Positions 2 to 57,775 of a DNA stretch of 64,000 nt are shown here, piece by piece. The translations under genes were made by a program, and so were the position numbers. The stretch comes from Polyangiales bacterium (GTDB lineage: Bacteria > Myxococcota_A > Polyangia > Polyangiales > JADJQN01). The notes beneath the pieces were generated by a model. It ran no database searches. It saw only the letters and a list, made by a program, of their open reading frames with translations, and was not told the DNA's origin. Where the stretch lies: positions 544,001 through 608,000 of the forward strand of contig CAXNJO010000003.1 of assembly GCA_964202905.1 (NCBI GenBank), given 5' to 3'. Position 1 is the stretch's first letter, and each line of letters opens with the position of its first letter.

Positions 2-832
2 CGGTCGGGCTCGGCGTACGAGCGACACCTCGTCCGTAGGGGCCACGAAGTGCGGGCCACCGTCGAAGGGATCGACGCGCTCCGCGTAGCGGAATCCGAT
101 GCGCCGCAGGAGTTTCTCGACCCCGCGGGTCTGCGGACCGACCTTGCCGATGACGTCCTGGGCCTGCGGCGAGAGCAGCGACGCGTAGATGTCGCCCTCG
201 GGCCAGAGGCCACGGATGAACTCCTTGTTCTTCTTCGAGAGGCGATCCGCCTCGCGGTAGGAGAGGCCCGTGAAGTGCCGGCCGACCGCCTCCCAGAGGT
301 GCGAGGTGCCATCGGGTTCGAGGGGCGGCAGGAGCTCCGCGAGCAGTTCGGCCTGCATGTCTTCGCGGTGCATCCGGATCCAGAGGAACCGGACGTAGCT
401 GATGAGCATGCCGAGGCGCTCGGGGGCGCGACGGCAGGCCGGGTGCATCACGAGTCCGCCGATTTCCGTGGGGCCGTTGAACGAGTAACCGATCGACAGG
501 ACCTTGTGGATGAAGTGCTTGTCGAGGGTCGCGCTGTACTTCTCCTCGGTCATCACGTCGACGTAGATGTACGGGGCCTCGCGTCGGCCGAGCTGGCCGA
601 TGATCATCGAGGTGCCGATGGCGCGCTGCTCGACGAGGTCGCGCAGGACGAAGACGTACTCGCGACGGCGCGGGTCACCGATGTTCCCGGAGAACGAGCG
701 CTCGGACACGTCGAGGAGTTCGTCGATCGCGACAGGGTCGTGCGGGAGATTGACGGAGTCGAGGAAGCGGGCGAGCTCGAGGAGGTCGTCGTGGTCGCGG
801 CGCGTCGCGGCGCGGATCTCGTAGCGGTTCAT
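2..832 (-). CDS. astA: Arginine N-succinyltransferase (AstA family), runs off left edge
   Basis: Not in ORF track. Manual translation from ATG at 832 (GAGGA RBS): MNRYEIRAATRRDHDDLLELARFLDSVNLP...GPTEIGGLVMHP...LWEAVGRHFTGLSYREADRLS...IGFRYAERVDPFDGGPH, which matches AstA motifs. Confidence 0.85.
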   Translation of the reverse strand, partial: MNRYEIRAATRRDHDDLLELARFLDSVNLPHDPVAIDELLDVSERSFSGNIGDPRRREYVFVLRDLVEQRAIGTSMIIGQLGRREAPYIYVDVMTEEKYSATLDKHFIHKVLSIGYSFNGPTEIGGLVMHPACRRAPERLGMLISYVRFLWIRMHREDMQAELLAELLPPLEPDGTSHLWEAVGRHFTGLSYREADRLSKKNKEFIRGLWPEGDIYASLLSPQAQDVIGKVGPQTRGVEKLLRRIGFRYAERVDPFDGGPHFVAPTDEVSLVRRARP

Positions 833-881
833 GGTTCCTCGAAGCGGCGCGCGACGTGCGGGCCCGGTTTGACGGAGCAAC

Positions 882-1331
882 TCAGAAGCGTTTCCGCGTG
901 TCGACGAGCAGGGTGACGGGCCCGTCGACGTCGGCACGGACGCGCATCATTGCGCGGAAACGGCCCGTCGCGACGGGGAGACCCGTGTCGCGGAGTCGCG
1001 CGCAGGTGTCCTCGTAGAGCGCGCGCGCGGGCTCGGGCGCGGCGGCACCGACGAAGGACGGTCGACGACCGGCGCGGACGTCACCGAAGAGCGTGAATTG
1101 CGAGACGACGAGGACGGCGCCGCCGATGTCCTGAACGCTGCGGGACATCTTGCCGGCCTCGTCCTCGAAGAGGCGGAGGTGGGAGACCTTCGCCGCCATC
1201 GTCGCCGCGTCTTCGGCGGTGTCGTCCGCGCCCACGCCGAGATACACGAGCAGACCGCGCGCGATTGCGCCGACCGTCTCGTCCTCGACGGTGACGCTGG
1301 CGGATGCGACCCGCTGCACGACTGCCCGCAC
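882..1331 (-). CDS. dtd: D-aminoacyl-tRNA deacylase
   Basis: MRAVVQRV start, SQFTL, GRRPSF, DGPVT motifs. Confidence 0.96.
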
Positions 1332-1387
1332 CGCACCGCGCTAGCACGAGCGGATGGACCGCGGCAACGAGGCGGCTCGCCGACTGC

Positions 1388-4300
1388 TCAGACGGTCCTT
1401 TGCAAGTGAAGTGCATGCGAACGGGCCATCTCGGGGCTCGGGAAGCCGCGCTGATCGAAGAGGGCGAGACGTGCGGGGGCCTCCGGATCGGGAACGGCGG
1501 GCGCCCGGAGTCGCTCGAGTTGCTCGAGGACCGCGGCGAGGGCCCAATCCGCGAGGCGTCCACCGGTGTCGACGGCATCGAAGCGGGGCGCGGGCGGGAG
1601 AAACGGCTCGTCGAGGCGCGCGCCGGGGCGCGACGCGAGCGCGAGCGCGGTGCGGAGGGTCTCGACGGCGAGCCCGCGTTGTCCGGAGGCCCATGCGATG
1701 CGCGCGAGCGTGAGGAGCCTCGCGAGGTCGGTGAGGTTTTCGATCGCGCCGAGGGCCCGCTCGAGGGCGCGACGCAGCGCGGCGGCACGCACCGCAGGGG
1801 GCTGCCGCGCGTCGGACGCAAGCGCGAAGTGGGCGAGCGCCTCGCGGTAGGCGGACTTGCCGGGGGTGTCCAAGTCGAGGGCGGCGCGGAGGGCGGGATG
1901 ACGCGCGAGAAGCGTCCGGGGGAGCGCCGTTTCCCACGATGGGAGCGCGGGGAGCGGCGATGCGGCCGTCGTCGCGAGGAGCCCGCGTTGCTCGAGGGCG
2001 CGCGCGCACGCGGCGTTGGCCGCGAAGAGCGTGTGCAGAAAGGCGTCGTTCTCGGTGCCCGGGGGATGCGGCTGCAGCAGCCCGAGACCGGGGACGAGGC
2101 GGTAGACGTCGTGGCCGCGGGCGCGGAGCGGCGCGAGCGGGTCGGGCGCCGCAGGGTCCGTGGAGCCGGGGGCCGCGAGCGTGACGACCCAGAGCGGATC
2201 GCCCTCAACGGGCAGGGGGAGGTGTTGGAAGGCCGCTTCGAGGGAGACGACGCCGGTGTCCACGCGCACCACTGCGATCGGGCCCGGACCGAATTTGGCG
2301 AGGGTCTCGCCAGGGGCGGACACGTCGGCTGCGCGCGGCATCGCGACGTCGACGTCGGGGCGCGGCTCCGCGACGGGGGCGCCCGATGGGCTGGGCGGCC
2401 GCGGCGCGTCGCCGACGATCAGGTGGCCGAATCGGTTCGCTGCGGCGCTCGCGCGCAGCCTCGCGGCGGGGACCGTGCGGGACTCGAGGGCGAGCACGCG
2501 GCCGGTGGGCCCGACCGCGCGCGCGAACGACAGCGCGTGCACGCCGGGCGCGGCGCCCACATCGACGGCGCGTCCGCCCTCTTGGAGCACGCCGCAGAGG
2601 AAATGCAGCGCGTCGTCGCTCGCCTCGCGGTCCAGCGCGAGCCCCGACGCGCACGGATCGTCGCGATCGGCCGGCGCCGCGATCCGAAGACCCGGGCCGA
2701 CGACGCGCCACGCCGCGTCGGGGTCGGGAAGCGCGACCTCGACGGGCCCAGCCTGCCAGGCGCTCGGACCCCTCGTCACATCCGCCACGTCGACGTCGGC
2801 GCGGGTTTGCGCGGCGCGGCACAGCGCGTCCTCGAGCGCGCGCGTCATGCGGGGCGCGTCGGTGAGGCCGCCCGCGTGCAAACGGGCGCGGGCCTCGGCA
2901 CGAAACGCGACGCGACGCGGCACATCGCGGAGCAGGTCGCGCGCGATGCGCACGTAAGCCTCCGCGGTTGCAGCGACGAGGTCGTCGAGGCCTGCACGCC
3001 GCAAGAGGCTCACACCCACGCGCGCGACGTGTGTCGCGCCCGCGAGCGTGACGACCGGCACGCCCATGAAGAGCGCGTCGCAGGTCGTCGTCGTGCCGTG
3101 GTAGGGCGACGTGTCGAGCGCGACGTCGACCTGGCGGTAAGCCTCGAGATGCGCGTTCAGGTCGGCGTCGAAGCCGACGAGGTCGACGCGCTCGAGCGGC
3201 AGACCGTGCGCGCGCAGGCGGTCCGCGAAGCGCGCACGGCTCTGTGGGTGCGAGAGATAGCCGTGCTTGAGGAGCAGCCGCGCCTCGGGGGTCTCGCGCA
3301 GGAGCGTGGCCCACAGAGAGAGCGTCGAGGCGGAGACCTTGGCGAGCGCGTTGAACGAGCCGAAGGTGGGCGAGCGTCCGGTCGTCGAGGGCGTCGGCGC
3401 GACGTCGGGGGCCCCAGGGGGCGCGCCGTAGCAGAGGAAACCCGGCTCCATGCGGAGCAGCTGTTCGGTGTGCAACGCCTCGGTGAGCCCTGCGGGATCG
3501 CAGTCTGCGTCGGTGAGGCGGACATCGATCGACGCGAGGCCGGTGGTGTCGGGATAGCCGAGCCAGGTCACCTGCATGGGCGCCGGCTTGCGGGCGAAGA
3601 CGCCGAGGCGGTTGCCGTTCGTGTGGCCGGAGAGGTCGACGAGCACGTCGATCTCGTCGGCGCGGATGAGCGCGGCGGCCTCGTCGTCGCCGAGCGGCGT
3701 GAGGTCGCGCCATGCGTCGACGCGCGACACGAGGCGGCGGCTGACCTCGTCGAGCTGGCGCGTCTGGCTGTAGAGCGTCACCGCGAAGCGCGCGCGGTCG
3801 TGGTGGGCGAGCAGTGGCTCGAGGAAGAACGCGACCGAGTGCCGGCGGAGGTCCGCGGAGACGTAGCCGATGCGCAGGCGTCTGCCGTGACCGATGGGAA
3901 TCGTACGCGGCGGGAGCCGCGAGACGGCTCGCTCGACACGCTCCCCGAAGCGGCGGTGGAGATCCGCGATCGCGGCCGCATCGAGCGTGTCCGCGTAGTG
4001 CGCGACGAGGAGCAGCGTGTCGTGGTGGGAGAGGTTCTCGGGCGCGCGAGCGACGGCCTCGCGCAGATGCGGGATCGCGAGGTCGGAGTCACCCCGCGCC
4101 GAGAGCGCCGCGCCGAGATGGGCGCGCGTCTCGGGGTCGTCGGGGACCTGCGCGTGCGCACGCTCGAGCGCGTCGATCGCCTCCTCGAGGCGCGGACCGG
4201 TGCGCAGCAGCGCACCATGGTTGCGGAGCGCGAGCGGGTGCGTCGGACGGAGCGCGAGGGCGGCGGCGTACTGCGCGATGGCCTCGTCCGTCGCGCCCCG

Positions 4301-4684: not shown

Positions 4685-5386
4685 ATGAACGAGCGCATTC
4701 TCGTCGCGGACGACGACGCGACCTCGCGCGAGCCGCTCGTCGCGCACCTCGCCGAGTGCGGCTGGATGGTGGGTGCGGTGCCCGACGGCCACGCGGCGCT
4801 CGCGGACGTGCGCGCGCAGCGCCCCGGTCTCGTCGTGCTCGAGCTGGCGCTTCCGGGGGTATCCGGGCTCGACGTGTGCCGCCGCATCCGGCGCGACGCA
4901 GACACCGCGACGCTACCGCTCATCGCGGTGAGCCGACGCGCCGACGAGGTCGAGCGTGTGGTCGCCTTCGAGGTCGGCGTCGACGACTTCGTGGCGAAGC
5001 CATTCAGCGTACGCGAGCTGGCGCTGCGCGTGCGGGCCGTGCTGCGACGCGCGAGTCCCGCACCGACGCAGAGTGCACCACGGCTCGCGATCGGGGCGCT
5101 GGTGGTCGACCGCGCGCGGCACCGCGTGCTCGTCGGCGGGCGGGAGATCGCCCTGACCGCGCTCGAGTTGAAGCTGCTCGATCACCTCGCGACACACCGC
5201 GACCGCGTGCAGTCGCGCGAGGTGCTGCTCGAGCGCGTGTGGGGACTCGACCCGGACATGGAGACGCGCACCGTGGACACGCACGTGAAGCGGCTCCGCG
5301 CGAAGCTCGGCGAGGCCGGCACGCTGATCGAGACGCTCCGCGGCGTCGGCTACCGCATCCGCGACAGCGCCACGCGCAAGCGGTAG
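4685..5386 (+). CDS. OmpR/PhoB-family response regulator (atypical receiver, Glu at the phospho-Asp site)
   Basis: C-terminal part of ORF 1304..5386: MNERILVADDD...LVVLELALPG...DDFVAKPFS...LTALE...RTVDTHVKRLRAKL...TLRGVGY. Confidence 0.92.
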   Translation: MNERILVADDDATSREPLVAHLAECGWMVGAVPDGHAALADVRAQRPGLVVLELALPGVSGLDVCRRIRRDADTATLPLIAVSRRADEVERVVAFEVGVDDFVAKPFSVRELALRVRAVLRRASPAPTQSAPRLAIGALVVDRARHRVLVGGREIALTALELKLLDHLATHRDRVQSREVLLERVWGLDPDMETRTVDTHVKRLRAKLGEAGTLIETLRGVGYRIRDSATRKR

Positions 5387-5441: not shown

Positions 5442-6110
5442 TCAGCGGAGGCCGCACCCCGAGACATGCCTGGGCGGCGTGTGCGGCGGCGCGACGACGG
5501 GGTGCGGCACGCGCGGCGAGTCGGCGCACGCGATGCGCCGAAAGACGACGGGGATATCGCGAAATGATTGTCCGTCGTTGAGCACGGACACGAACTCCAT
5601 CCGCGCGAAGTCGATCCGACCGCTGAACGTGTCGAGCGCGTAGCCGCCGCCCCACCCGCAATACGTGCGCTCGCCGACGTAGGAGGTCGCGGCGAAACGG
5701 ATGGCGCCATCGGTGGCGACCGTGCCGACCGCAGGCTCGCGGACCTCGGCGCGCACGGTTCCGGGGCCGCAGGCGGGCGGCTCGACGGCGCGCTCGTCGC
5801 CCGTCCAGAAGTGCACGCGCATCTGACCCACGAGGCGGTCGGGCGCGGCGCCCTCGCGGCGCACGTCGAGGTGCACGACGTACCACTGCGCCACGTGCGG
5901 GTACCACGCATGCGACATCCACGTCCCCGTGATCGGATCGCTGCAATCCGTCGCGGCGGGCGGCAGACGCGCGCGCTGCTCTTGCACGTTCGCCGGCGCG
6001 ACCGAGGGCCACGCGGTGCAGGCGAGCAGCGTGACGCCGACCGCCAGCGCGAGACGACGGCGTCGATGGCGTCGAGCGTGGGGCGCGCGGGGCGAAAGCG
6101 CGGGGTTCAT
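5442..6110 (-). CDS. Hypothetical secreted protein
   Basis: Basic N-terminus plus hydrophobic signal peptide, ordinary composition, paired Cys. Confidence 0.7.
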   Translation of the reverse strand: MNPALSPRAPHARRHRRRRLALAVGVTLLACTAWPSVAPANVQEQRARLPPAATDCSDPITGTWMSHAWYPHVAQWYVVHLDVRREGAAPDRLVGQMRVHFWTGDERAVEPPACGPGTVRAEVREPAVGTVATDGAIRFAATSYVGERTYCGWGGGYALDTFSGRIDFARMEFVSVLNDGQSFRDIPVVFRRIACADSPRVPHPVVAPPHTPPRHVSGCGLR

Positions 6111-6209
6111 CGGGGTTCGCGGCAGAGAGTACCGCGCCGTGCGGCCGCGGGGCGCACGAAGGCGCGGCGCACGACGGTGGGGCGACCGGGGGCGCCCCCG
6201 CCGCTGCGC

Positions 6210-7199
6210 TCAGCTGCGGAGCAGACCGGCGCCGTGCAGGGCCGCTTCGCGTGCGTGCGCGAGGAGGCGGTCCGCGCCGCGCGCGAGGAGCGTCGCGGCG
6301 AGCTCGTGGCCCGCGTCGATCGCGGCGCGGAGCCTCGCGTCAGCGGGGGTCGCAGGGAGCCAGATCTCCGTGCCGGCGCGCAGGAGTTCGTCGCCGTCGA
6401 CCGAGCCGACGAGCGCGTCGAGGTGCAAGCGCGCGCCGTCGGACGCGAGGCGGGCGTGCGCCGCGAGCGGGGCCTGACACCCGCCCTCGAGGCGCCCGAG
6501 GAAGGCGCGCTCGGCCTCGACGCACAGGCGCGTCGCAGGGTCCTCGAGGGGAGCGAGCAGCGCGCGCGTGCGGGCGTCGGCGGCGCGCGCCTCGAGCGCG
6601 AGGACGCCCTGCCCCACCGCGGGGACGCAGACGTCGGGCGGGATCGGCCAGAGCGCGCGGTCGGCGAGGCCGAGGCGCCGCAGCCCCGCGAGCGCGAGGA
6701 CGATCGCGTCGTAACGGCCCTCGTCGAGCTTGCGGAGGCGCGTGTCGACGTTGCCGCGGAGCACGGTGTACGCGAGGTCGTTGCGTGCCGCGCGGAGCTG
6801 GCAGCTGCGGCGCAGCGAGCTCGTACCGACGCGCGCACCGGCGACGAGGGCGTCGAGCTCGAGGCCCTCGCGGGTCACGAGGACGTCGCGCGGGTCTTCG
6901 CGAGGGGGCACGCACACGAGCGAGAGGCCGGGCGCGAGGACCGCGGGGACGTCCTTCATCGAGTGCACCGCGAAGTCGGCCCGGCCATCGACGAGCGCCG
7001 CCTCGACCTCGCTCACGAAGAGGCCCTTGCCACCGAACTTCGAGAGCAGATCCGTCTGGTTGCGGTCGCCCTCTGTGACGATCTGCACCTCTTCGACGAC
7101 GAGGCCGGGCCAGCGCGCGCAGAGATCCGCGGCCACGGCGCGCGTCTGCGTGAGGGCGAGCAGGCTCTTGCGCGTCGCGACCCGGAGGAGCCCGCTCAT
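6210..7199 (-). CDS. hemC: Hydroxymethylbilane synthase (porphobilinogen deaminase)
   Basis: ATRKSLLALTQ, GGKGLFVSE, AVHSMKDVP, GTSSLRR, RGNVDTRL, LEGGCQAP; ATGA overlap with the hemA stop. Confidence 0.97.
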   Translation of the reverse strand: MSGLLRVATRKSLLALTQTRAVAADLCARWPGLVVEEVQIVTEGDRNQTDLLSKFGGKGLFVSEVEAALVDGRADFAVHSMKDVPAVLAPGLSLVCVPPREDPRDVLVTREGLELDALVAGARVGTSSLRRSCQLRAARNDLAYTVLRGNVDTRLRKLDEGRYDAIVLALAGLRRLGLADRALWPIPPDVCVPAVGQGVLALEARAADARTRALLAPLEDPATRLCVEAERAFLGRLEGGCQAPLAAHARLASDGARLHLDALVGSVDGDELLRAGTEIWLPATPADARLRAAIDAGHELAATLLARGADRLLAHAREAALHGAGLLRS

Positions 7200-8542
7200 C
7201 GCTTGCCCTCGGCGATCGCGGGCGCCGCAGCCTCGACCTCTGCGGGCGCGTCCGCAGCGGAGCGATCGGCCGGCTCGGCGGGCTGCAGCGCGAAGAGCTG
7301 CTGCGCCGCGTCGAGCAGCTGCGCGCTGCCCTCGCTCTCGGCGTCCTTCTTCAGTGCGGTGAGCGGCTGGTGCAGGAGTTTGTTCACGATCGCGTCGGCC
7401 ATCCTGTCGAGGGTCTTCCGGTCCTCGTCGCCGAGTCCCTGCAAGCGCGGCACCGTGCGCGCGAGCTCGGCGACGACGATCTCTCGGAACCGCGCGCGCA
7501 GCGCGACGATCGTCGGAGTGAGCGCGAGGCTCTTGCGCCAGAGTTCGAACTCGGCGACCTCCTCGTGGACGATCCGCTCCGCGGACTCGGCCTCGCGGCG
7601 CCGCGCGTCGGCCGCGCCGCGCGAGACGCTCTCGAGGTGGTCGACGTCGTAGAGGAAGACGTTCTCGAGATCGCCGACGCGTGGGTCGATGTCGCGCGGG
7701 ACGGCGATGTCCACGAGCAGCATGAGACGGTGCCGGCGCGCCTTCACGACCGCCTGCATCGCCTCGCGCGTGATCACGAAGCCGGGGCTCGCCGTGGAGC
7801 TGATGACGACGTCCGCGAGGATCAACTCCGCTTGGAGTTGATCGAGCGTCCGCGCCTCGCCGCCGTGCTCGCGCGCGAGGGCCTCCGCGCGCTCGAGGCT
7901 GCGGTTGGCGACGACGATGCGGGCGCCGGCGCCGTGCAGGTGTCGCGCGGCGGCCTCGGCCATCTCGCCCGCGCCGACGAGCAGCACGCGTCGCCCCTCG
8001 AGCCGGCCGAAGACCTTGGCCGCGAGCTCGCACGCCACGCTGCTCACGCTCACCGCGCCGGCCGCGATCGCGGTCTCGCTGCGCACGCGCTTGGCGACCG
8101 CGAACGCGCGCTGGAAACAGCGCGAGAGCAGCGTGCCCGTCGTGCCCGCGGCCTCGGCGGCGCCGAAGGCTTCCTTCACCTGCCCGAGAATCTGCGGCTC
8201 GCCGACCACCATCGAGTCGAGGCTCGAAGCGACGCGGAAGGCATGCTGCACCGCGTCACCACCTGCGCGCTCGTAGAGGTGCCCCTCGAGCGACGTCGCG
8301 ACTGCGCGGGAGGCAAGCCAGGCGCGCGCGGCGCCCGCACCGGCGCGGGCGTCACGGGCGGCGAGGTAGACCTCGACGCGGTTGCACGTCGAGATGACGA
8401 CGGTCTCGTCGAGCGCGCCGGTCGCGAGCAGGCCGCGCAGATCCGCGCCGAGCTCCGCCGCGGGCACGGCGAGGCGCTCCCGCAACGCGAGCGGCGCGGT
8501 GCGGTGCGAGAGTCCGATGACGACGATGTCGCGGCTGCTCAC
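7196..8542 (-). CDS. hemA: Glutamyl-tRNA reductase
   Basis: GLSHRTAP, STCNRVE, SLDSMVVGEPQILGQVK, GAGEM, DIAVPRDID; GTG start overlaps the ccsA stop. Confidence 0.97.
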   Translation of the reverse strand: MSSRDIVVIGLSHRTAPLALRERLAVPAAELGADLRGLLATGALDETVVISTCNRVEVYLAARDARAGAGAARAWLASRAVATSLEGHLYERAGGDAVQHAFRVASSLDSMVVGEPQILGQVKEAFGAAEAAGTTGTLLSRCFQRAFAVAKRVRSETAIAAGAVSVSSVACELAAKVFGRLEGRRVLLVGAGEMAEAAARHLHGAGARIVVANRSLERAEALAREHGGEARTLDQLQAELILADVVISSTASPGFVITREAMQAVVKARRHRLMLLVDIAVPRDIDPRVGDLENVFLYDVDHLESVSRGAADARRREAESAERIVHEEVAEFELWRKSLALTPTIVALRARFREIVVAELARTVPRLQGLGDEDRKTLDRMADAIVNKLLHQPLTALKKDAESEGSAQLLDAAQQLFALQPAEPADRSAADAPAEVEAAAPAIAEGKR

Positions 8543-52480: not shown

Positions 52481-53146
52481 GTGGGCGTGGTCGTAGGACT
52501 GACGGGTGGGATCGCGTCGGGCAAGAGCACCGTGGCGCGTCTCTTCGGCGCGCTCGGCGTGCCCATCGTGGACGCGGACGCCGTGGCGCGGGACGTCGTC
52601 GCGCCGGGCAGCGACGCGCTCCGCGAGATCGTCGCGGCCTTCGGCGAGGGCGTGCTCGCGGGCGGCGCGCTCGACCGCGCGTCGCTCGGCGCGCGCGTGT
52701 TCGCGGACACGGCGTCGCGCCGCCGACTCGAGGCGATCACGCACCCGCGCATCGCCGCCGAGAGCGCACGGCGGCTCGCGGCCGCACTCGCGGGCGGCGC
52801 GCCCTATGCGCTCTACGAGGCCGCCCTGCTCGTCGAGAACGGCGCGTACCGCATGTTCCCCGCGCTCGTCGTCGTCACCGCGCCCGAGGACGTGCAGCGC
52901 GCGCGCATCGCCGCGCGGGACGAGCTCGACGCGGCGCAGGCCCAGGCGCGCATCGCGGCGCAGGCGCCCGTCGACGCGAAGGTCGCCGTCGCCGACTGGG
53001 TCATCGAGAACGCCGGCGACCTCGCCGCGCTCGAGGCGCGCGTGCGCGCGGTGCACGGCGCGATCCTCGCGCGCTTCGCGGCGGAGGCCGTGCCCGGAGC
53101 GGCGCAGGGCGGGGTCGGGGCGGACACGCACGGAGGCGCACGATGA
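52481..53146 (+). CDS. coaE: Dephospho-CoA kinase
   Basis: GLTGGIASGKST, DAD, LEAITHPRI, EAALLVE. Confidence 0.96.
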   Translation: MGVVVGLTGGIASGKSTVARLFGALGVPIVDADAVARDVVAPGSDALREIVAAFGEGVLAGGALDRASLGARVFADTASRRRLEAITHPRIAAESARRLAAALAGGAPYALYEAALLVENGAYRMFPALVVVTAPEDVQRARIAARDELDAAQAQARIAAQAPVDAKVAVADWVIENAGDLAALEARVRAVHGAILARFAAEAVPGAAQGGVGADTHGGAR

Positions 53147-54273
53147 GCCGCGGACGCACGCTGGTGACGGGCTTCCCCTCGAGTTTCCTCGCGCGGCGCG
53201 TGGTGCAGAAGCTCCTCGCCGCCGAGCCCACGACGCGGCTCACCTGCGTGGTGCAGGCGAAGTTCCGCGCCCGCGCGGAGGAGGCGCTCCGCGGGCTCGG
53301 CGACGCCGAGCGGCGCCGCGTCGAGCTCGTCGAGGGCGACATCGCCGCGATGGACCTCGGGCTCTCCGGGCGCGAGTTCCGCGAGCTCGCGCGCGAGGTC
53401 GAGGTCATCCACCACTGCGCGGCGGTCACGTACCTAGGCGCCGATCGCCGCGCCGCCGAGCGCGTGAACGTCGGCGGCACGCGCGAGGTGGTCGAGTTGG
53501 CCGAGGCCGCGACGAACCTCTCGCGCCTCGTGCACTGGTCGACCGCGCTCGTGTCCGGCGCACGCCGCGGCTACGTGCTCGAGGGCGAGCTGCTCGCGCC
53601 GTCGGGGTTCCGCAACGCGGTCGAGGAGACGCGCTTCCGCGCCGAGCGCATCGTGCTCGAGGCGGGCGCGCGGGTGCCGACGACGGTGCTGCGCCCTGCG
53701 ACGATCGTGGGCGACTCGCACACCGGCGAGATCGACCGCTTCGAGGGCCCGTACCTGCTCGTGCAGCTGCTCCTCAGCGCGCCGAGCGATCTGCGCCTGC
53801 CGCTCCCCGGCCGCGGCGACATCCCGCTGAACCTCGTGCCCATCGACTACGCCGTCGACGCAGGCTGCGCGATCGCCCGCGACCCGCGCTCGGTCGGGCG
53901 CACCTTTCACCTCGTCGATCCACACCCGCTCACGACGCGCGCGGTGTTCGAGCGGCTCGCGCACGAGGCGGGGCGCCCCTCGCCGCGCGGCTCCGTCCCG
54001 ACGCGCGTCGCGGCCGCGCTCCTGCGCGCGCCCGGCCTCGATCGGCTCGCGCAGGCGCCGCGCGCCTTCCTCGAGCAGCTCGGCACCGAGGTCGTGTACG
54101 ACGCGCGCAACACCGAGGAGTTGCTCGCGCACACCGGCATCGCGTGCCCGCCCTTCGATCGCTATGTGGGCACGCTCGTCGACGCCGTGCGCCGCCAGCA
54201 GGCCGCGCGGCGCGCGCAGGTCGCGACCGAGCTCGAGGCCGTGCCCGAGCACGACGACCCGCTCGCGGATTGA
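53143..54273 (+). CDS. Extended SDR oxidoreductase (male-sterility/thioester-reductase-like)
   Basis: LVTGFPSSFLA, EGDI, HCAA, VNVGGT, RPATIVGDS, VPIDY; coupled to coaE. Confidence 0.85.
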   Translation: MSRGRTLVTGFPSSFLARRVVQKLLAAEPTTRLTCVVQAKFRARAEEALRGLGDAERRRVELVEGDIAAMDLGLSGREFRELAREVEVIHHCAAVTYLGADRRAAERVNVGGTREVVELAEAATNLSRLVHWSTALVSGARRGYVLEGELLAPSGFRNAVEETRFRAERIVLEAGARVPTTVLRPATIVGDSHTGEIDRFEGPYLLVQLLLSAPSDLRLPLPGRGDIPLNLVPIDYAVDAGCAIARDPRSVGRTFHLVDPHPLTTRAVFERLAHEAGRPSPRGSVPTRVAAALLRAPGLDRLAQAPRAFLEQLGTEVVYDARNTEELLAHTGIACPPFDRYVGTLVDAVRRQQAARRAQVATELEAVPEHDDPLAD

Positions 54274-54480
54274 GCCTCACGCACGCTCGACGAGCCTCTT
54301 CGCGCCGGCGCGAAGCGACGTGGTTTCAACCACTTGTGGCCGAATGCCACGCTCGTGCGCGGGAGTCCGAATCCGGCATCGTCGCGATGTTTGGGAGTTT
54401 GTTCGACGTCGCAGAACTTCGCGTGACCCCACGCGTCGGAGGCTCCACGGCGCGCAGAGACGCGCGCGAAGGAGCCCGCG

Positions 54481-55719
54481 GTGGACGTCACGCTCGTACT
54501 CACGCACGACTGCAACCTCGGCTGCGCCTACTGCTACGCGGGCGCGAAGTTCCAGAAGCGCATGAGCCCGGAGACGGCGTCGCGCGCGATCGCGCTCGCC
54601 TTCACCGACGGCGCGCCCCGCGTGCAAATCTCGTTCTTCGGCGGGGAGCCGCTGCTCGCGTGGGACGAGCTCGTGCGCTCGGCCGAAGAGGCGCGCGCGC
54701 TGGCCGAAGCGCGCGGCGTCGCGCTCGTGATGTCGGTGACGACGAACGGCACGCTGCTCGACGCCGACCGCGCCGCGACCCTCGACGCGCTCGGCGTCTA
54801 CGTCGCGCTCTCGATCGACGGCGTCCGCGAGGCGCACGACGCGGGGCGCCCGCGCGCAGGCGGCGGCTCGAGCTTCGATCAGGTCGCGCGCGGCCTCGAG
54901 GTGCTGCTGCGGCGCGGGACGCCCTTCGAGACGATCTCCGTCGTCACGCCGCAGAACGCACACCTCGTCGGCGCATCCGTCGAATGGCTCTTCGCGCAGG
55001 GCGTGCCGCGCGTGGGGCTCAACCCCTGCTACGAGGCGGCCTTCGACGACGCAGCGCTCGCGGCGTGGGAGCGCGGGCTCGAGCACGCGGCCGAGGTCGT
55101 CGCGGGTCATTTCCGCAGCGGGCGCGTCGTCTCGCTGACGACCTTCGACAACAAGATCCTCGCGGCCGTGAAGGGCGGGCTCTCGGCGGGCGATCGCTGC
55201 TCGCTCGGCACGCGCAGCGTGGCCGTCGCGCCGGGCGGGAACCTCTACGCCTGCGAGCGGCTCGTCGGCGAGGACGACGACGCCTCGCTCGTGATCGGCC
55301 ACGTCGACGACTGGGCGGGCCCCGCGGGCGAGGCGTGCGCGCGCGGCCCGGTGAACCCGGCGTGCGAGCCCTGCGGCGAGCGCTGGCGTTGCAGCAGCCA
55401 CTGCGCCTGCGCGAACCGCGCGGAGACGGGGCGCACCGACGTCGCGGGCGGCACGCAGTGCTGGCACGAGCGCACGACGGCGCGCATCGCCGATGGCCTC
55501 GCCGAGACGCTCTGGGCCGAGCAGAACCCGGCGTTTCTCGCGTGGTTCTACGGGCGCTCGCTGCCCGCCGGGACGACCGCCAACGGCGCCCACGAAGCGC
55601 ACGCGTCGGCACACGCGAGCACCCCCATGCGCACGCCGCACGAGCCGCGACGAAGCGTCGGACGCATCGATCGGCGGGCGCCCGTGACCGCACGAAAGCG
55701 CCTCGTGGTGGTGCGCTGA
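54481..55719 (+). CDS. Radical SAM/SPASM-domain protein (anSME/peptide maturase-like)
   Basis: AAGGAG RBS; CNLGCAYC, FFGGEPLL, TTNG, SIDG; SPASM Cys CSLG..GNLYAC..CEPC..CSSHCAC..C. Confidence 0.93.
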   Translation: MDVTLVLTHDCNLGCAYCYAGAKFQKRMSPETASRAIALAFTDGAPRVQISFFGGEPLLAWDELVRSAEEARALAEARGVALVMSVTTNGTLLDADRAATLDALGVYVALSIDGVREAHDAGRPRAGGGSSFDQVARGLEVLLRRGTPFETISVVTPQNAHLVGASVEWLFAQGVPRVGLNPCYEAAFDDAALAAWERGLEHAAEVVAGHFRSGRVVSLTTFDNKILAAVKGGLSAGDRCSLGTRSVAVAPGGNLYACERLVGEDDDASLVIGHVDDWAGPAGEACARGPVNPACEPCGERWRCSSHCACANRAETGRTDVAGGTQCWHERTTARIADGLAETLWAEQNPAFLAWFYGRSLPAGTTANGAHEAHASAHASTPMRTPHEPRRSVGRIDRRAPVTARKRLVVVR

Positions 55720-55784
55720 GCCGCCTCGCCCGACTTCCATCTTTTCCAGAATCACGTCCTCCATCGCTCGATCACGGAGCCGCC

Positions 55785-56504
55785 ATGACCGCGCCACGCC
55801 CTGTCCGCCGCAAGCCCGTCGCCGCACCGCTGGCCTCCTCGCGCACGCTCGCGCGCCCGCTCGCACCGCACGCCGTCACGGACGCGCCGCGCGGCTATCC
55901 GACGGCCGCCGCGCTCTTCGCCTCGGGCGGGCTCACGACGCAGCTCGGCGCCTCGCTGCGCGCGCTGCTCGGCCCCGCGGCGCTGATGGGCGCCGTGGGC
56001 GTCGCCGGCTGCGGGCCGCTCGACGCGCCGCCGAAGGCGGATCCCGCCGCAGACGTCTCGCCGGGCGACGCGAAGACGCCGCCCGACAAACCGGACGATG
56101 CCGCATCACCGCCGGACGACGCGCCGGTCTCGGGGACGCCCTCCATCGTGCTCACGCCGCTGCCGCCTCAGCCGCCTCCGATCCGGCCGCCCGTGCCGCA
56201 GGACGTCGACACCGGCCGCCCGCCACCCCGTCCGTGGACGCCGCCGGTCGTCTCCGGTCCGCTGCCGCCTCTGGTGCGCCCCCCGATCGCGCGCGGCGTC
56301 ATGCAGCACGTCGAGCCCGAGCCCCCGAGGCCGGAGCCCATGCCCCCGCGGCCCGAGCCGATCCTCCCGCGTCGGGACCCGATCCCGCTCGCGGGCGCGC
56401 CGATGCCCGTGCATCCGCCCCCGCTGCCGCCGCCTCCGATCCATCCTGCCCCCCACGCCCCGCAGGCGCCGGGGCGCATCATGGTGCGCCCGGACGTCGA
56501 ATGA
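55785..56504 (+). CDS. Proline-rich putative lipoprotein, candidate radical SAM substrate
   Basis: Tail of ORF 52506..56504; GGAG RBS before ATG 55785; PRGYPT, VAGC lipobox (Cys76), Pro-rich body with repeated G..M motifs. Confidence 0.75.
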   Translation: MTAPRPVRRKPVAAPLASSRTLARPLAPHAVTDAPRGYPTAAALFASGGLTTQLGASLRALLGPAALMGAVGVAGCGPLDAPPKADPAADVSPGDAKTPPDKPDDAASPPDDAPVSGTPSIVLTPLPPQPPPIRPPVPQDVDTGRPPPRPWTPPVVSGPLPPLVRPPIARGVMQHVEPEPPRPEPMPPRPEPILPRRDPIPLAGAPMPVHPPPLPPPPIHPAPHAPQAPGRIMVRPDVE

Positions 56505-56608
56505 CCGCGTCGTGCGGCGCCTGCCTCTGACCGCGCCGATCGCCGTGCGAAACAGGCCGATCACGCCGTGCGACGCGGCGCGGAGCGCGTGCTAGCGTCG
56601 CCCCGGCC

Positions 56609-57775
<1,167 letters not shown>

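Follow-up and report, generated by a model that had tools for sequence, protein, structure and literature searches.

A 64,000-nucleotide (nt) stretch of a Polyangiales bacterium genome (assembly GCA_964202905.1, contig CAXNJO010000003.1, positions 544,001 to 608,000), referred to below as the window, contains a two-gene cassette consisting of a radical S-adenosylmethionine (SAM) enzyme with a SPASM domain and, downstream of it, a partner gene encoding a predicted lipoprotein precursor. The conserved element of this partner appears to be an N-terminal tag located ahead of the signal peptide, and not the proline-rich (Pro-rich) part behind it. Comparison of related loci indicates that the pairing of enzyme and partner is well supported and does not reflect chance synteny. 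We consider it somewhat probable that the tag functions as a leader by which the enzyme is docked in the cytoplasm, and that the cargo is modified, exported and lipidated. Modification of the partner by the enzyme before export seems likely because a tag with an invariant Tyr-Pro pair accompanies this enzyme family in several phyla.

The enzyme gene (54481..55719, stop included; all cassette features lie on the + strand and are given as window positions) was delimited by its open reading frame (ORF), profile matches and an alignment of relatives, and encodes 412 amino acids. A Shine-Dalgarno-like GAAGGAG can be read in the sequence 6 nt ahead of its GTG start (54468..54474). The protein belongs to the radical SAM superfamily by its score against the Pfam Radical_SAM model (PF04055, 66.5 bits, cut-off 29.5) and by its CxxxCxxC motif, C11-x3-C15-x2-C18 (54511..54534), which is conserved without exception in the 50 aligned sequences. 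Fer4_12 was the only other Pfam model matched, and a Pfam SPASM model was not among the matches at E ≤ 0.01. The GGEP motif (residues 54–57, 54640..54651) is likewise invariant in the family alignment. SPASM domains are recognized by the seven-Cys motif Cx9-15Gx4C ... Cx2Cx5Cx3C ... C. The enzyme carries this motif in residues 240–327 (55198..55461) as C240-x12-G253-x4-C258 ... C295-x2-C298-x5-C304-x3-C308 ... C327 and is thus a complete SPASM-domain enzyme with three clusters. Alignment to the PapB profile extends up to residue 319, and none of the cluster Cys varies among the 50 family members. The radical SAM motif, GGEP and the full SPASM Cys set are therefore all located where the initial annotation, made from the sequence alone, had placed them. 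An N-terminus of the form M-D/H-V-x-L-x-L-T-H-x-C-N-L-x-C is common to all 13 relatives compared and, with the cluster motif beginning at residue 11, argues that the assigned start is correct. Neither Pfam nor comparison with solved structures revealed an RRE or PqqD recognition domain, and the N-terminus leaves no space for one. The C-terminal tail (residues 353–412, 55537..55716) is variable; its alignment lacks a consensus and variable positions fall on all codon positions.

The partner gene (55785..56504, stop included) starts 65 nt past the enzyme stop in the same orientation and encodes 239 amino acids comprising tag, lipoprotein signal and Pro-rich mature part; a GGAG can be read 5 nt ahead of its ATG (55776..55779). 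It is contained in a 1332-residue open frame (52506–56504, +) that spans coaE, a reductase gene, the enzyme and the partner, of which only the last 239 codons form a gene. The G+C content of the region is 72–79%, so long spurious ORFs are frequent here, and the 1332-residue frame is an artefact of this high G+C content. The partner itself is a genuine coding gene. Its G+C content at third codon positions (GC3) amounts to 0.90 for the whole gene and to 0.94 over the first 84 codons, compared with 0.94–0.96 in neighboring genes, and the reading frame is preserved from start to stop in homologues of 64–94% identity from other assemblies. The initial annotation's 239-codon ORF hidden inside a spurious longer one is thereby borne out by both GC3 and homologues. 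In fragmentary contigs from four metagenome runs, 5 of 7 listed variable positions within the partner ORF are third codon positions, which is weak evidence since only 40 of 96 differences were listed. Insertions and deletions directly after the start in these contigs sum to 6 nt, matching the homologue P0122, which is two residues shorter.

The tag corresponds to residues 1–58 (55785..55958) and is basic and conserved in a 28-sequence alignment. None of the 28 Pro-rich family members deviates at K10, R24, Y38, P39 or P64, and when 22 tags of two cargo types are compared, Y38, P39 and C76 are the sole invariant columns (22 of 22; Tyr38-Pro39 codons, 55896..55901). Behind the tag, the signal (55959..56012) forms the sole hydrophobic peak of the protein, at about residues 59–75, with R61 preceding a hydrophobic stretch (62–72) and the lipobox V-A-G-C76. 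A lipobox has the form [LVI][ASTVI][GAS]C and is preceded by a positively charged n-region and a short hydrophobic region (h-region), and the partner accordingly has the motif of a predicted lipoprotein precursor. C76 lies 76 residues from the start, which is much longer than a usual signal. With its Tyr-Pro tag before h-region and lipobox Cys, and its position beside the enzyme, the window's partner is a tag-bearing partner like those of the relatives described below.

The mature part (residues 77–239, 56013..56501) consists of 163 amino acids, 36% of them Pro, and lacks a predicted fold. An AlphaFold2 model based on 28 family sequences (mean predicted local distance difference test score, pLDDT, 62.9; predicted template modelling score, pTM, 0.19) contains helices at residues 41–46 and 49–74 and no secondary structure after residue 74. 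Three copies of a repeat, PPx[VIM]xGx[IVM]xxVxP, are present (residues 166–178, 56280..56318; residues 199–212, 56379..56420; residues 226–236, 56460..56492), and most of the Pro-rich relatives listed contain 1–5 copies. C76 is the only Cys of the partner, leaving the mature part Cys-free, and 15 of 27 listed Pro-rich sequences likewise have a single Cys, that of the lipobox. No Pfam or NCBIfam model matched partners of either cargo type, the ESM Atlas gave no usable match for the window's partner, and a word-indexed search with the partner profile returned only 8 proteins, probably due to Pro-rich words swamping the candidate list.

A profile of the tag was searched against 1.84 billion representative proteins. 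It matched at least 674 protein clusters (E ≤ 1e-3), 13 of which also pass E ≤ 1e-10, with an N-terminal match in every case; the window's partner scores 49–55 bits against it. Among the best 150 of the 674 tag proteins, 105 carry a globular and 20 a Pro-rich cargo, another 17 are short and probably represent fragments, and 8 have other cargo, for example an acidic repeat protein.

To compare loci, 41 complete genome sets (that of the window and those of 40 relatives) were searched for enzyme orthologues, which yielded high-scoring orthologues with 38–67% identity in 13 genomes besides the window's. In 6 of these 13 loci (L022–L026, L031) the enzyme gene is followed by a Pro-rich ORF with the tag, and L027 contains a short form of the partner that was recognized by eye only and lies below the threshold of the tag hidden Markov model (HMM; E 0.01). 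In five relatives the partner starts at −4, −4, −1, −1 (overlapping genes) and +22 nt relative to the enzyme stop. The outer flanks of these loci vary, so conserved order with other genes fails to explain the pairing. The window's own genome contains exactly one tag match.

A broader scan using one genome per species resulted in 48 loci, over which HMMs of the tag and of the globular cargo were run in all six frames. Matches were found in 27 of the 48 loci, plus one weak match (L044), and all of them adjoin the enzyme on the same strand. The 20 loci without a match include two lacking an upstream flank, one at a contig end and two that are weak partial matches to other radical SAM genes. Distant loci, with enzymes of 30–35% identity, are found in Planctomycetota, Hydrogenedentota, Kiritimatiellota, Verrucomicrobiota, Nitrospirota, Bacillota and one Myxococcales genome. 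They encode 1–4 copies of a protein of 240–310 amino acids with Tyr-Pro, a short helix-prone stretch, an h-region and a lipobox Cys, followed by a globular domain in place of the Pro-rich region. An enzyme tree of 48 rows was calculated after omitting one broken, three partial and two weakly matching sequences as well as eight duplicate loci. The window's clade (Shimodaira-Hasegawa-like approximate likelihood ratio test support, 98) has a Pro-rich partner in 6 of 7 rows, the wider Polyangiales group a partner in 7 of 13 rows, and a multi-phylum clade a globular partner in 18 of 21 rows, two of the other three having no flank. Rows are related to each other, so these counts are descriptive and no statistical test was attached to them. 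The check proposed in the initial annotation, that homologous enzymes should have a neighboring lipoprotein with a Tyr-Pro leader, was therefore answered positively for most of the window's clade and for the 27 loci of the wider scan.

Some loci deviate from a simple enzyme-partner pair. L035, from the same genome as L023, contains two Pro-rich tag-bearing genes on either side of the enzyme (2990–3493 and 4706–5287), and L063 from a Clostridia assembly has four tandem globular tag-bearing lipoprotein genes (220–3498) immediately before the enzyme. In L031, which shares its genome with L046, the enzyme sequence is distributed over three frames (5995–7500) and the downstream partner is intact; a tandem repeat with abundant Arg, Ala and Gly or Glu in both open frames lies between the enzyme-matching part and the partner, and the broken enzyme may represent a pseudogene or result from faulty assembly.

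Several features of the tag-bearing proteins themselves were also noted. The globular cargo of L065 (2648–3463, model m3e0481711c4f) is predicted with a confident fold (pLDDT 84.4). A Foldseek search of the globular cargo of distant relatives against the PDB found nothing below E 0.1, and the best VIA-align result, an endonuclease-like domain with a Z of 6.2, is below the level considered meaningful for this tool. A stretch of the form HGxGxGxxGC right after the signal is nearly invariant in the globular cargo. In L079 (Planctomycetaceae; 1885–2031 and 2690–2818), Tyr-Pro is directly followed by T-R-R-E-V-L and the h-region, resembling a twin-arginine signal, and some tag family members may be exported by the twin-arginine translocation (Tat) route instead of the general secretory (Sec) route. 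The low-G+C members P0208, P0248 and P0213 have linker repeats such as L-M-G-E-P-A-I-V that resemble the repeat of the Pro-rich family. A cargo motif shared across types, L-x-G-[DEA]-[VIP]-[AIM]-x-[VIFL], was rejected as too weak: defined post hoc after the sequences had been viewed, it gave 5 matches in 96 non-Pro-rich proteins versus 0.6 ± 0.8 in shuffled sequences, where the maximum was also 5.

In the sequence of events we propose, the N-terminal tag would act as a leader that binds the recognition-domain-less enzyme and perhaps delays export. The cargo would be modified in the cytoplasm ahead of Sec export, after which Lgt and LspA, both encoded in the genome, would lipidate Cys76 and remove tag and signal together. 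Because the tag would be cut off with the signal, signal peptidase II would double as leader peptidase, and the mature product would be an extended, lipid-anchored envelope protein. A leader role is suggested because a conserved leader joined to a variable cargo is the usual pattern of RiPPs, peptides that are made by ribosomes and modified after translation. QhpD/QhpC and CrpC/CrpA are protein-sized precedents for leader-dependent modification (PMC13692751), and bufferins are a precedent for modified precursors with export signals (PMC12452194).

With respect to chemistry, the thioether formation of PapB, CteB and QhpD cannot apply unchanged because the window's mature part is Cys-free. A Cys-to-carbon thioether then cannot be the shared reaction of this clade unless the lipobox Cys participates. 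Modification could instead take place at the three PPx[VIM]xGx[IVM]xxVxP repeats, for instance as epimerisation or as a carbon-carbon or carbon-oxygen cross-link, which is a guess made with low confidence. The complete proposal, in which a leader before the lipoprotein signal recruits the enzyme, signal peptidase II acts as leader peptidase and a non-thioether modification is introduced at the Pro-rich repeats, is tentative and we regard it as rather doubtful in this full form.

Several observations weigh against a tag-guided modification of the cargo. The remaining 6 of the 13 orthologue loci lack a tag-bearing ORF, five enzymes of the same Polyangiales group (L036, L028, L038, L029 and L030) have no adjacent partner, and a long-branch Polyangia clade has a partner in 0 of 10 rows of the enzyme tree. 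The enzyme of genome G002, 67% identical to that of the window and its sister in the tree, is followed by an unrelated lipoprotein of 440 amino acids, and a tag match is absent from the whole G002 genome, which is 94% complete. Genomes G032 and G034 also have no tag match, and G018 has only a weak one elsewhere; the enzyme can thus persist without the partner. The nearest characterized enzymes all use Cys thiols and the mature part is Cys-free, so their chemistry is not transferable. The enzyme also has no RRE or PqqD domain that could account for tag binding. Finally, the strictly conserved residues are located in the tag, which would be removed; this fits a leader but equally a tag that is itself the target. 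As a separate observation, the lipoprotein of 440 amino acids in G002 (L021/L045) bears an ordinary short signal.

Conservation within the tag also suits the most probable of the alternatives, namely that the enzyme acts on the tag itself, at or near Tyr-Pro, with the cleaved tag and signal released as a modified peptide or with export being controlled by the modification. Y38, P39 and the lipobox Cys are the sole residues invariant across cargo types, the cargoes (Pro-rich, globular and acidic-repeat) are mutually unrelated, and the window's mature part is Cys-free and without a predicted fold, all of which favors this reading. In line with it, enterococcal sex pheromones are derived from lipoprotein signal peptides. 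However, the combination of conserved leader and variable cargo is usual in RiPPs, so this conservation is compatible with a leader, the Pro-rich cargo retains conserved repeats, and the invariant Gly/Cys-rich stretch after the signal in the globular cargo suggests constrained sites beyond the tag. We regard the tag as an unlikely target.

In another explanation, which we consider quite improbable, the partner would be no substrate at all. It would instead hold the enzyme at the membrane, or regulate it there, through its cytoplasmic N-terminus, and the molecule acted upon would be a different one, such as some other protein or a lipid. The occurrence of the enzyme without a partner in G002 and several Polyangiales relatives and the missing recognition domain would be in line with this, as would the hydrophobic segment, which could be a signal anchor if uncleaved. 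However, a proper lipobox follows a short h-region in most members, pointing to cleavage, up to four tandem partner copies per enzyme (L063) fit several substrates better than several anchors, and the closest families are all peptide or protein maturases. Least probable is that we are dealing with an anaerobic sulfatase maturase, or a different stand-alone maturase, beside an ORF for an unrelated envelope protein kept nearby through shared ancestry: although anSME is among the weaker matches (TIGR03942 and structure 4K37) and the genome has 7 Sulfatase-family genes above the Pfam cut-off, the TIGR03942 score of 82.7 bits is far below its cut-off of 349.45, none of the 8 Sulfatase-family matches genome-wide lies on the window's contig (C3), and the partner remains beside the enzyme across phyla despite differing flanks. 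Enzymes of the FGE-sulfatase (formylglycine-generating enzyme) family also mature sulfatases, and since the genome has 12 matches to this family, a radical SAM sulfatase maturase would be unnecessary. The initial annotation's remark that the window has no sulfatase thus extends to the whole contig, and its suggested comparison with true sulfatase maturases speaks against the enzyme being one.

Comparison with known families places the enzyme among peptide and protein maturases, which are its top family matches, while no NCBIfam model reached its cut-off and none did in Pfam beyond the generic radical SAM models. The best NCBIfam scores are those of PapB (165.3 bits), a nif11-type model (120.5), geopeptide (101.1), SCIFF (97.1), QhpD (93.8), DynA (88.0) and anSME (82.7), and the nearest solved structures are CteB (5WGG, E 4.6e-18) and anSME (4K37, E 9e-13). 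The view that the pair matches no characterized family is consistent with all these scores being below the cut-offs.

PapB of the PapB/PapA freyrasin ranthipeptide system (NF047865) gives the best family score (165.3 bits, E 2e-48, residues 3–319 including the SPASM region), and the system resembles the cassette in that its radical SAM/SPASM enzyme acts on a ribosomal product whose gene lies alongside. However, the score is below half of the cut-off of 340. PapB acts on a short peptide with Cys-containing repeats, in which it joins Cys to Asp or Glu, whereas the partner here is a lipoprotein precursor of 239 amino acids with a single lipobox Cys and not a multi-Cys substrate. Residues 5–310 of the enzyme align with residues 101–418 of the SCIFF thioether maturase CteB, but the first 100 residues of CteB, which form its peptide-recognition domain, have no counterpart. 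The SCIFF maturase model (TIGR03974) itself scores 97.1 bits against a cut-off of 425, and the partner is no six-Cys peptide.

The QhpD model (TIGR03906) matches enzyme residues 3–354 with 93.8 bits, far from the cut-off of 453, and profile positions 1–95 are unmatched. In the QhpD/QhpC system the QhpC leader is cut by a dedicated protease and QhpC is exported by an ABC transporter; among the Pfam and NCBIfam matches of the flanks, neither a dedicated protease nor an ABC transporter gene was found next to the enzyme-partner pair. QhpC is also Cys-rich, unlike the partner. According to the available text of a recent account, QhpD is a radical SAM/SPASM enzyme that modifies a leader-bearing subunit in the cytoplasm before this reaches the periplasm, and has a recognition domain for the leader (PMC13692751). 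The same source describes CrpC/CrpA from Methanococcus voltae, where a SPASM enzyme modifies a whole protein of the same cluster and the N-terminal part of the substrate is proposed to engage the enzyme. This system differs in being archaeal, in its Cys-rich substrate, in an enzyme with a recognition domain and in forming ranthionine cross-links (PMC13692751). The terms 'signal peptide' and 'lipoprotein' do not occur in the main text of that paper.

With regard to export, the closest parallel is offered by bufferins and related precursors modified by multinuclear non-haem iron enzymes (MNIOs), in which Sec signal peptides replace classical leaders. Lipoprotein signals occur in about 16% of Buf2 precursors, and the authors also raise the question of delaying export until modification is complete (PMC12452194). 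Their enzymes are, however, not radical SAM proteins but act with DUF2063 partners and Cys-targeted chemistry, and the available text describes no separate tag before the signal (PMC12452194). The general statement in the initial annotation that radical SAM/lipoprotein gene pairs exist is correct, as a Bacteroidetes pairing of a radical SAM/SPASM enzyme (TIGR04133, rSAM_w_lipo) with a putative lipoprotein (TIGR04134, lipo_with_rSAM) has been curated, but that family is a different one: TIGR04133 gave 11 weak matches in the genome, which do not include the window's enzyme and all fall short of the cut-off of 425, and TIGR04134 had no match at E ≤ 0.1. Full-text searches outside subscription journals and supplements returned no description of a pair of enzyme and tagged lipoprotein. 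The cassette, judged from its sequences, resembles a leader-dependent radical SAM protein maturase system yet appears to belong to none of the named families compared. Compared with these, the putative leader before a lipoprotein signal, the lack of a recognition domain, the lack of a dedicated protease or transporter and, in the window, the Cys-free, Pro-rich cargo would be new.

Most of the known radical SAM/SPASM maturases act on short peptides, and few on whole proteins. Precursors leaving by the general Sec route have been called highly unusual in the available text on bufferins (PMC12452194). The tag is present in at least 674 protein clusters of several phyla and has no curated family. 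If the enzyme does modify these proteins, this would represent a widespread and unstudied chemical alteration of cell-envelope proteins and, should the chemistry be of a non-thioether type, an undescribed modification of surface lipoproteins ranging from Myxococcota to Planctomycetota and Bacillota. The window's copy would be useful for studying this chemistry because its Cys-free mature part excludes Cys-based chemistry there; either the chemistry is narrowed accordingly, or the site lies in the tag and lipobox region.

The cassette is flanked by genes for CoaE (152.8 bits, cut-off 65.55), an NAD_binding_4 reductase, a Get3/ArsA-type ATPase and GlmU, in agreement with the housekeeping-type surroundings that had been read from the sequence. 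The best match of the ATPase (56609–57775, +) is a mycobacterial BagB model (332 bits, cut-off 521), and its gene has no BagA-like neighbor, glmU being next. Promoter and terminator scans of positions 54100–56800 gave no match. A small precursor peptide upstream of the enzyme was considered and rejected: the 207-nt gap contains just ORFs of 30 and 40 amino acids, which are unsupported. Further radical SAM genes are clustered at two other sites of the same genome, at about 687–702 kb of contig C2 and about 20–33 kb of contig C1, and these may be peptide-modification clusters.

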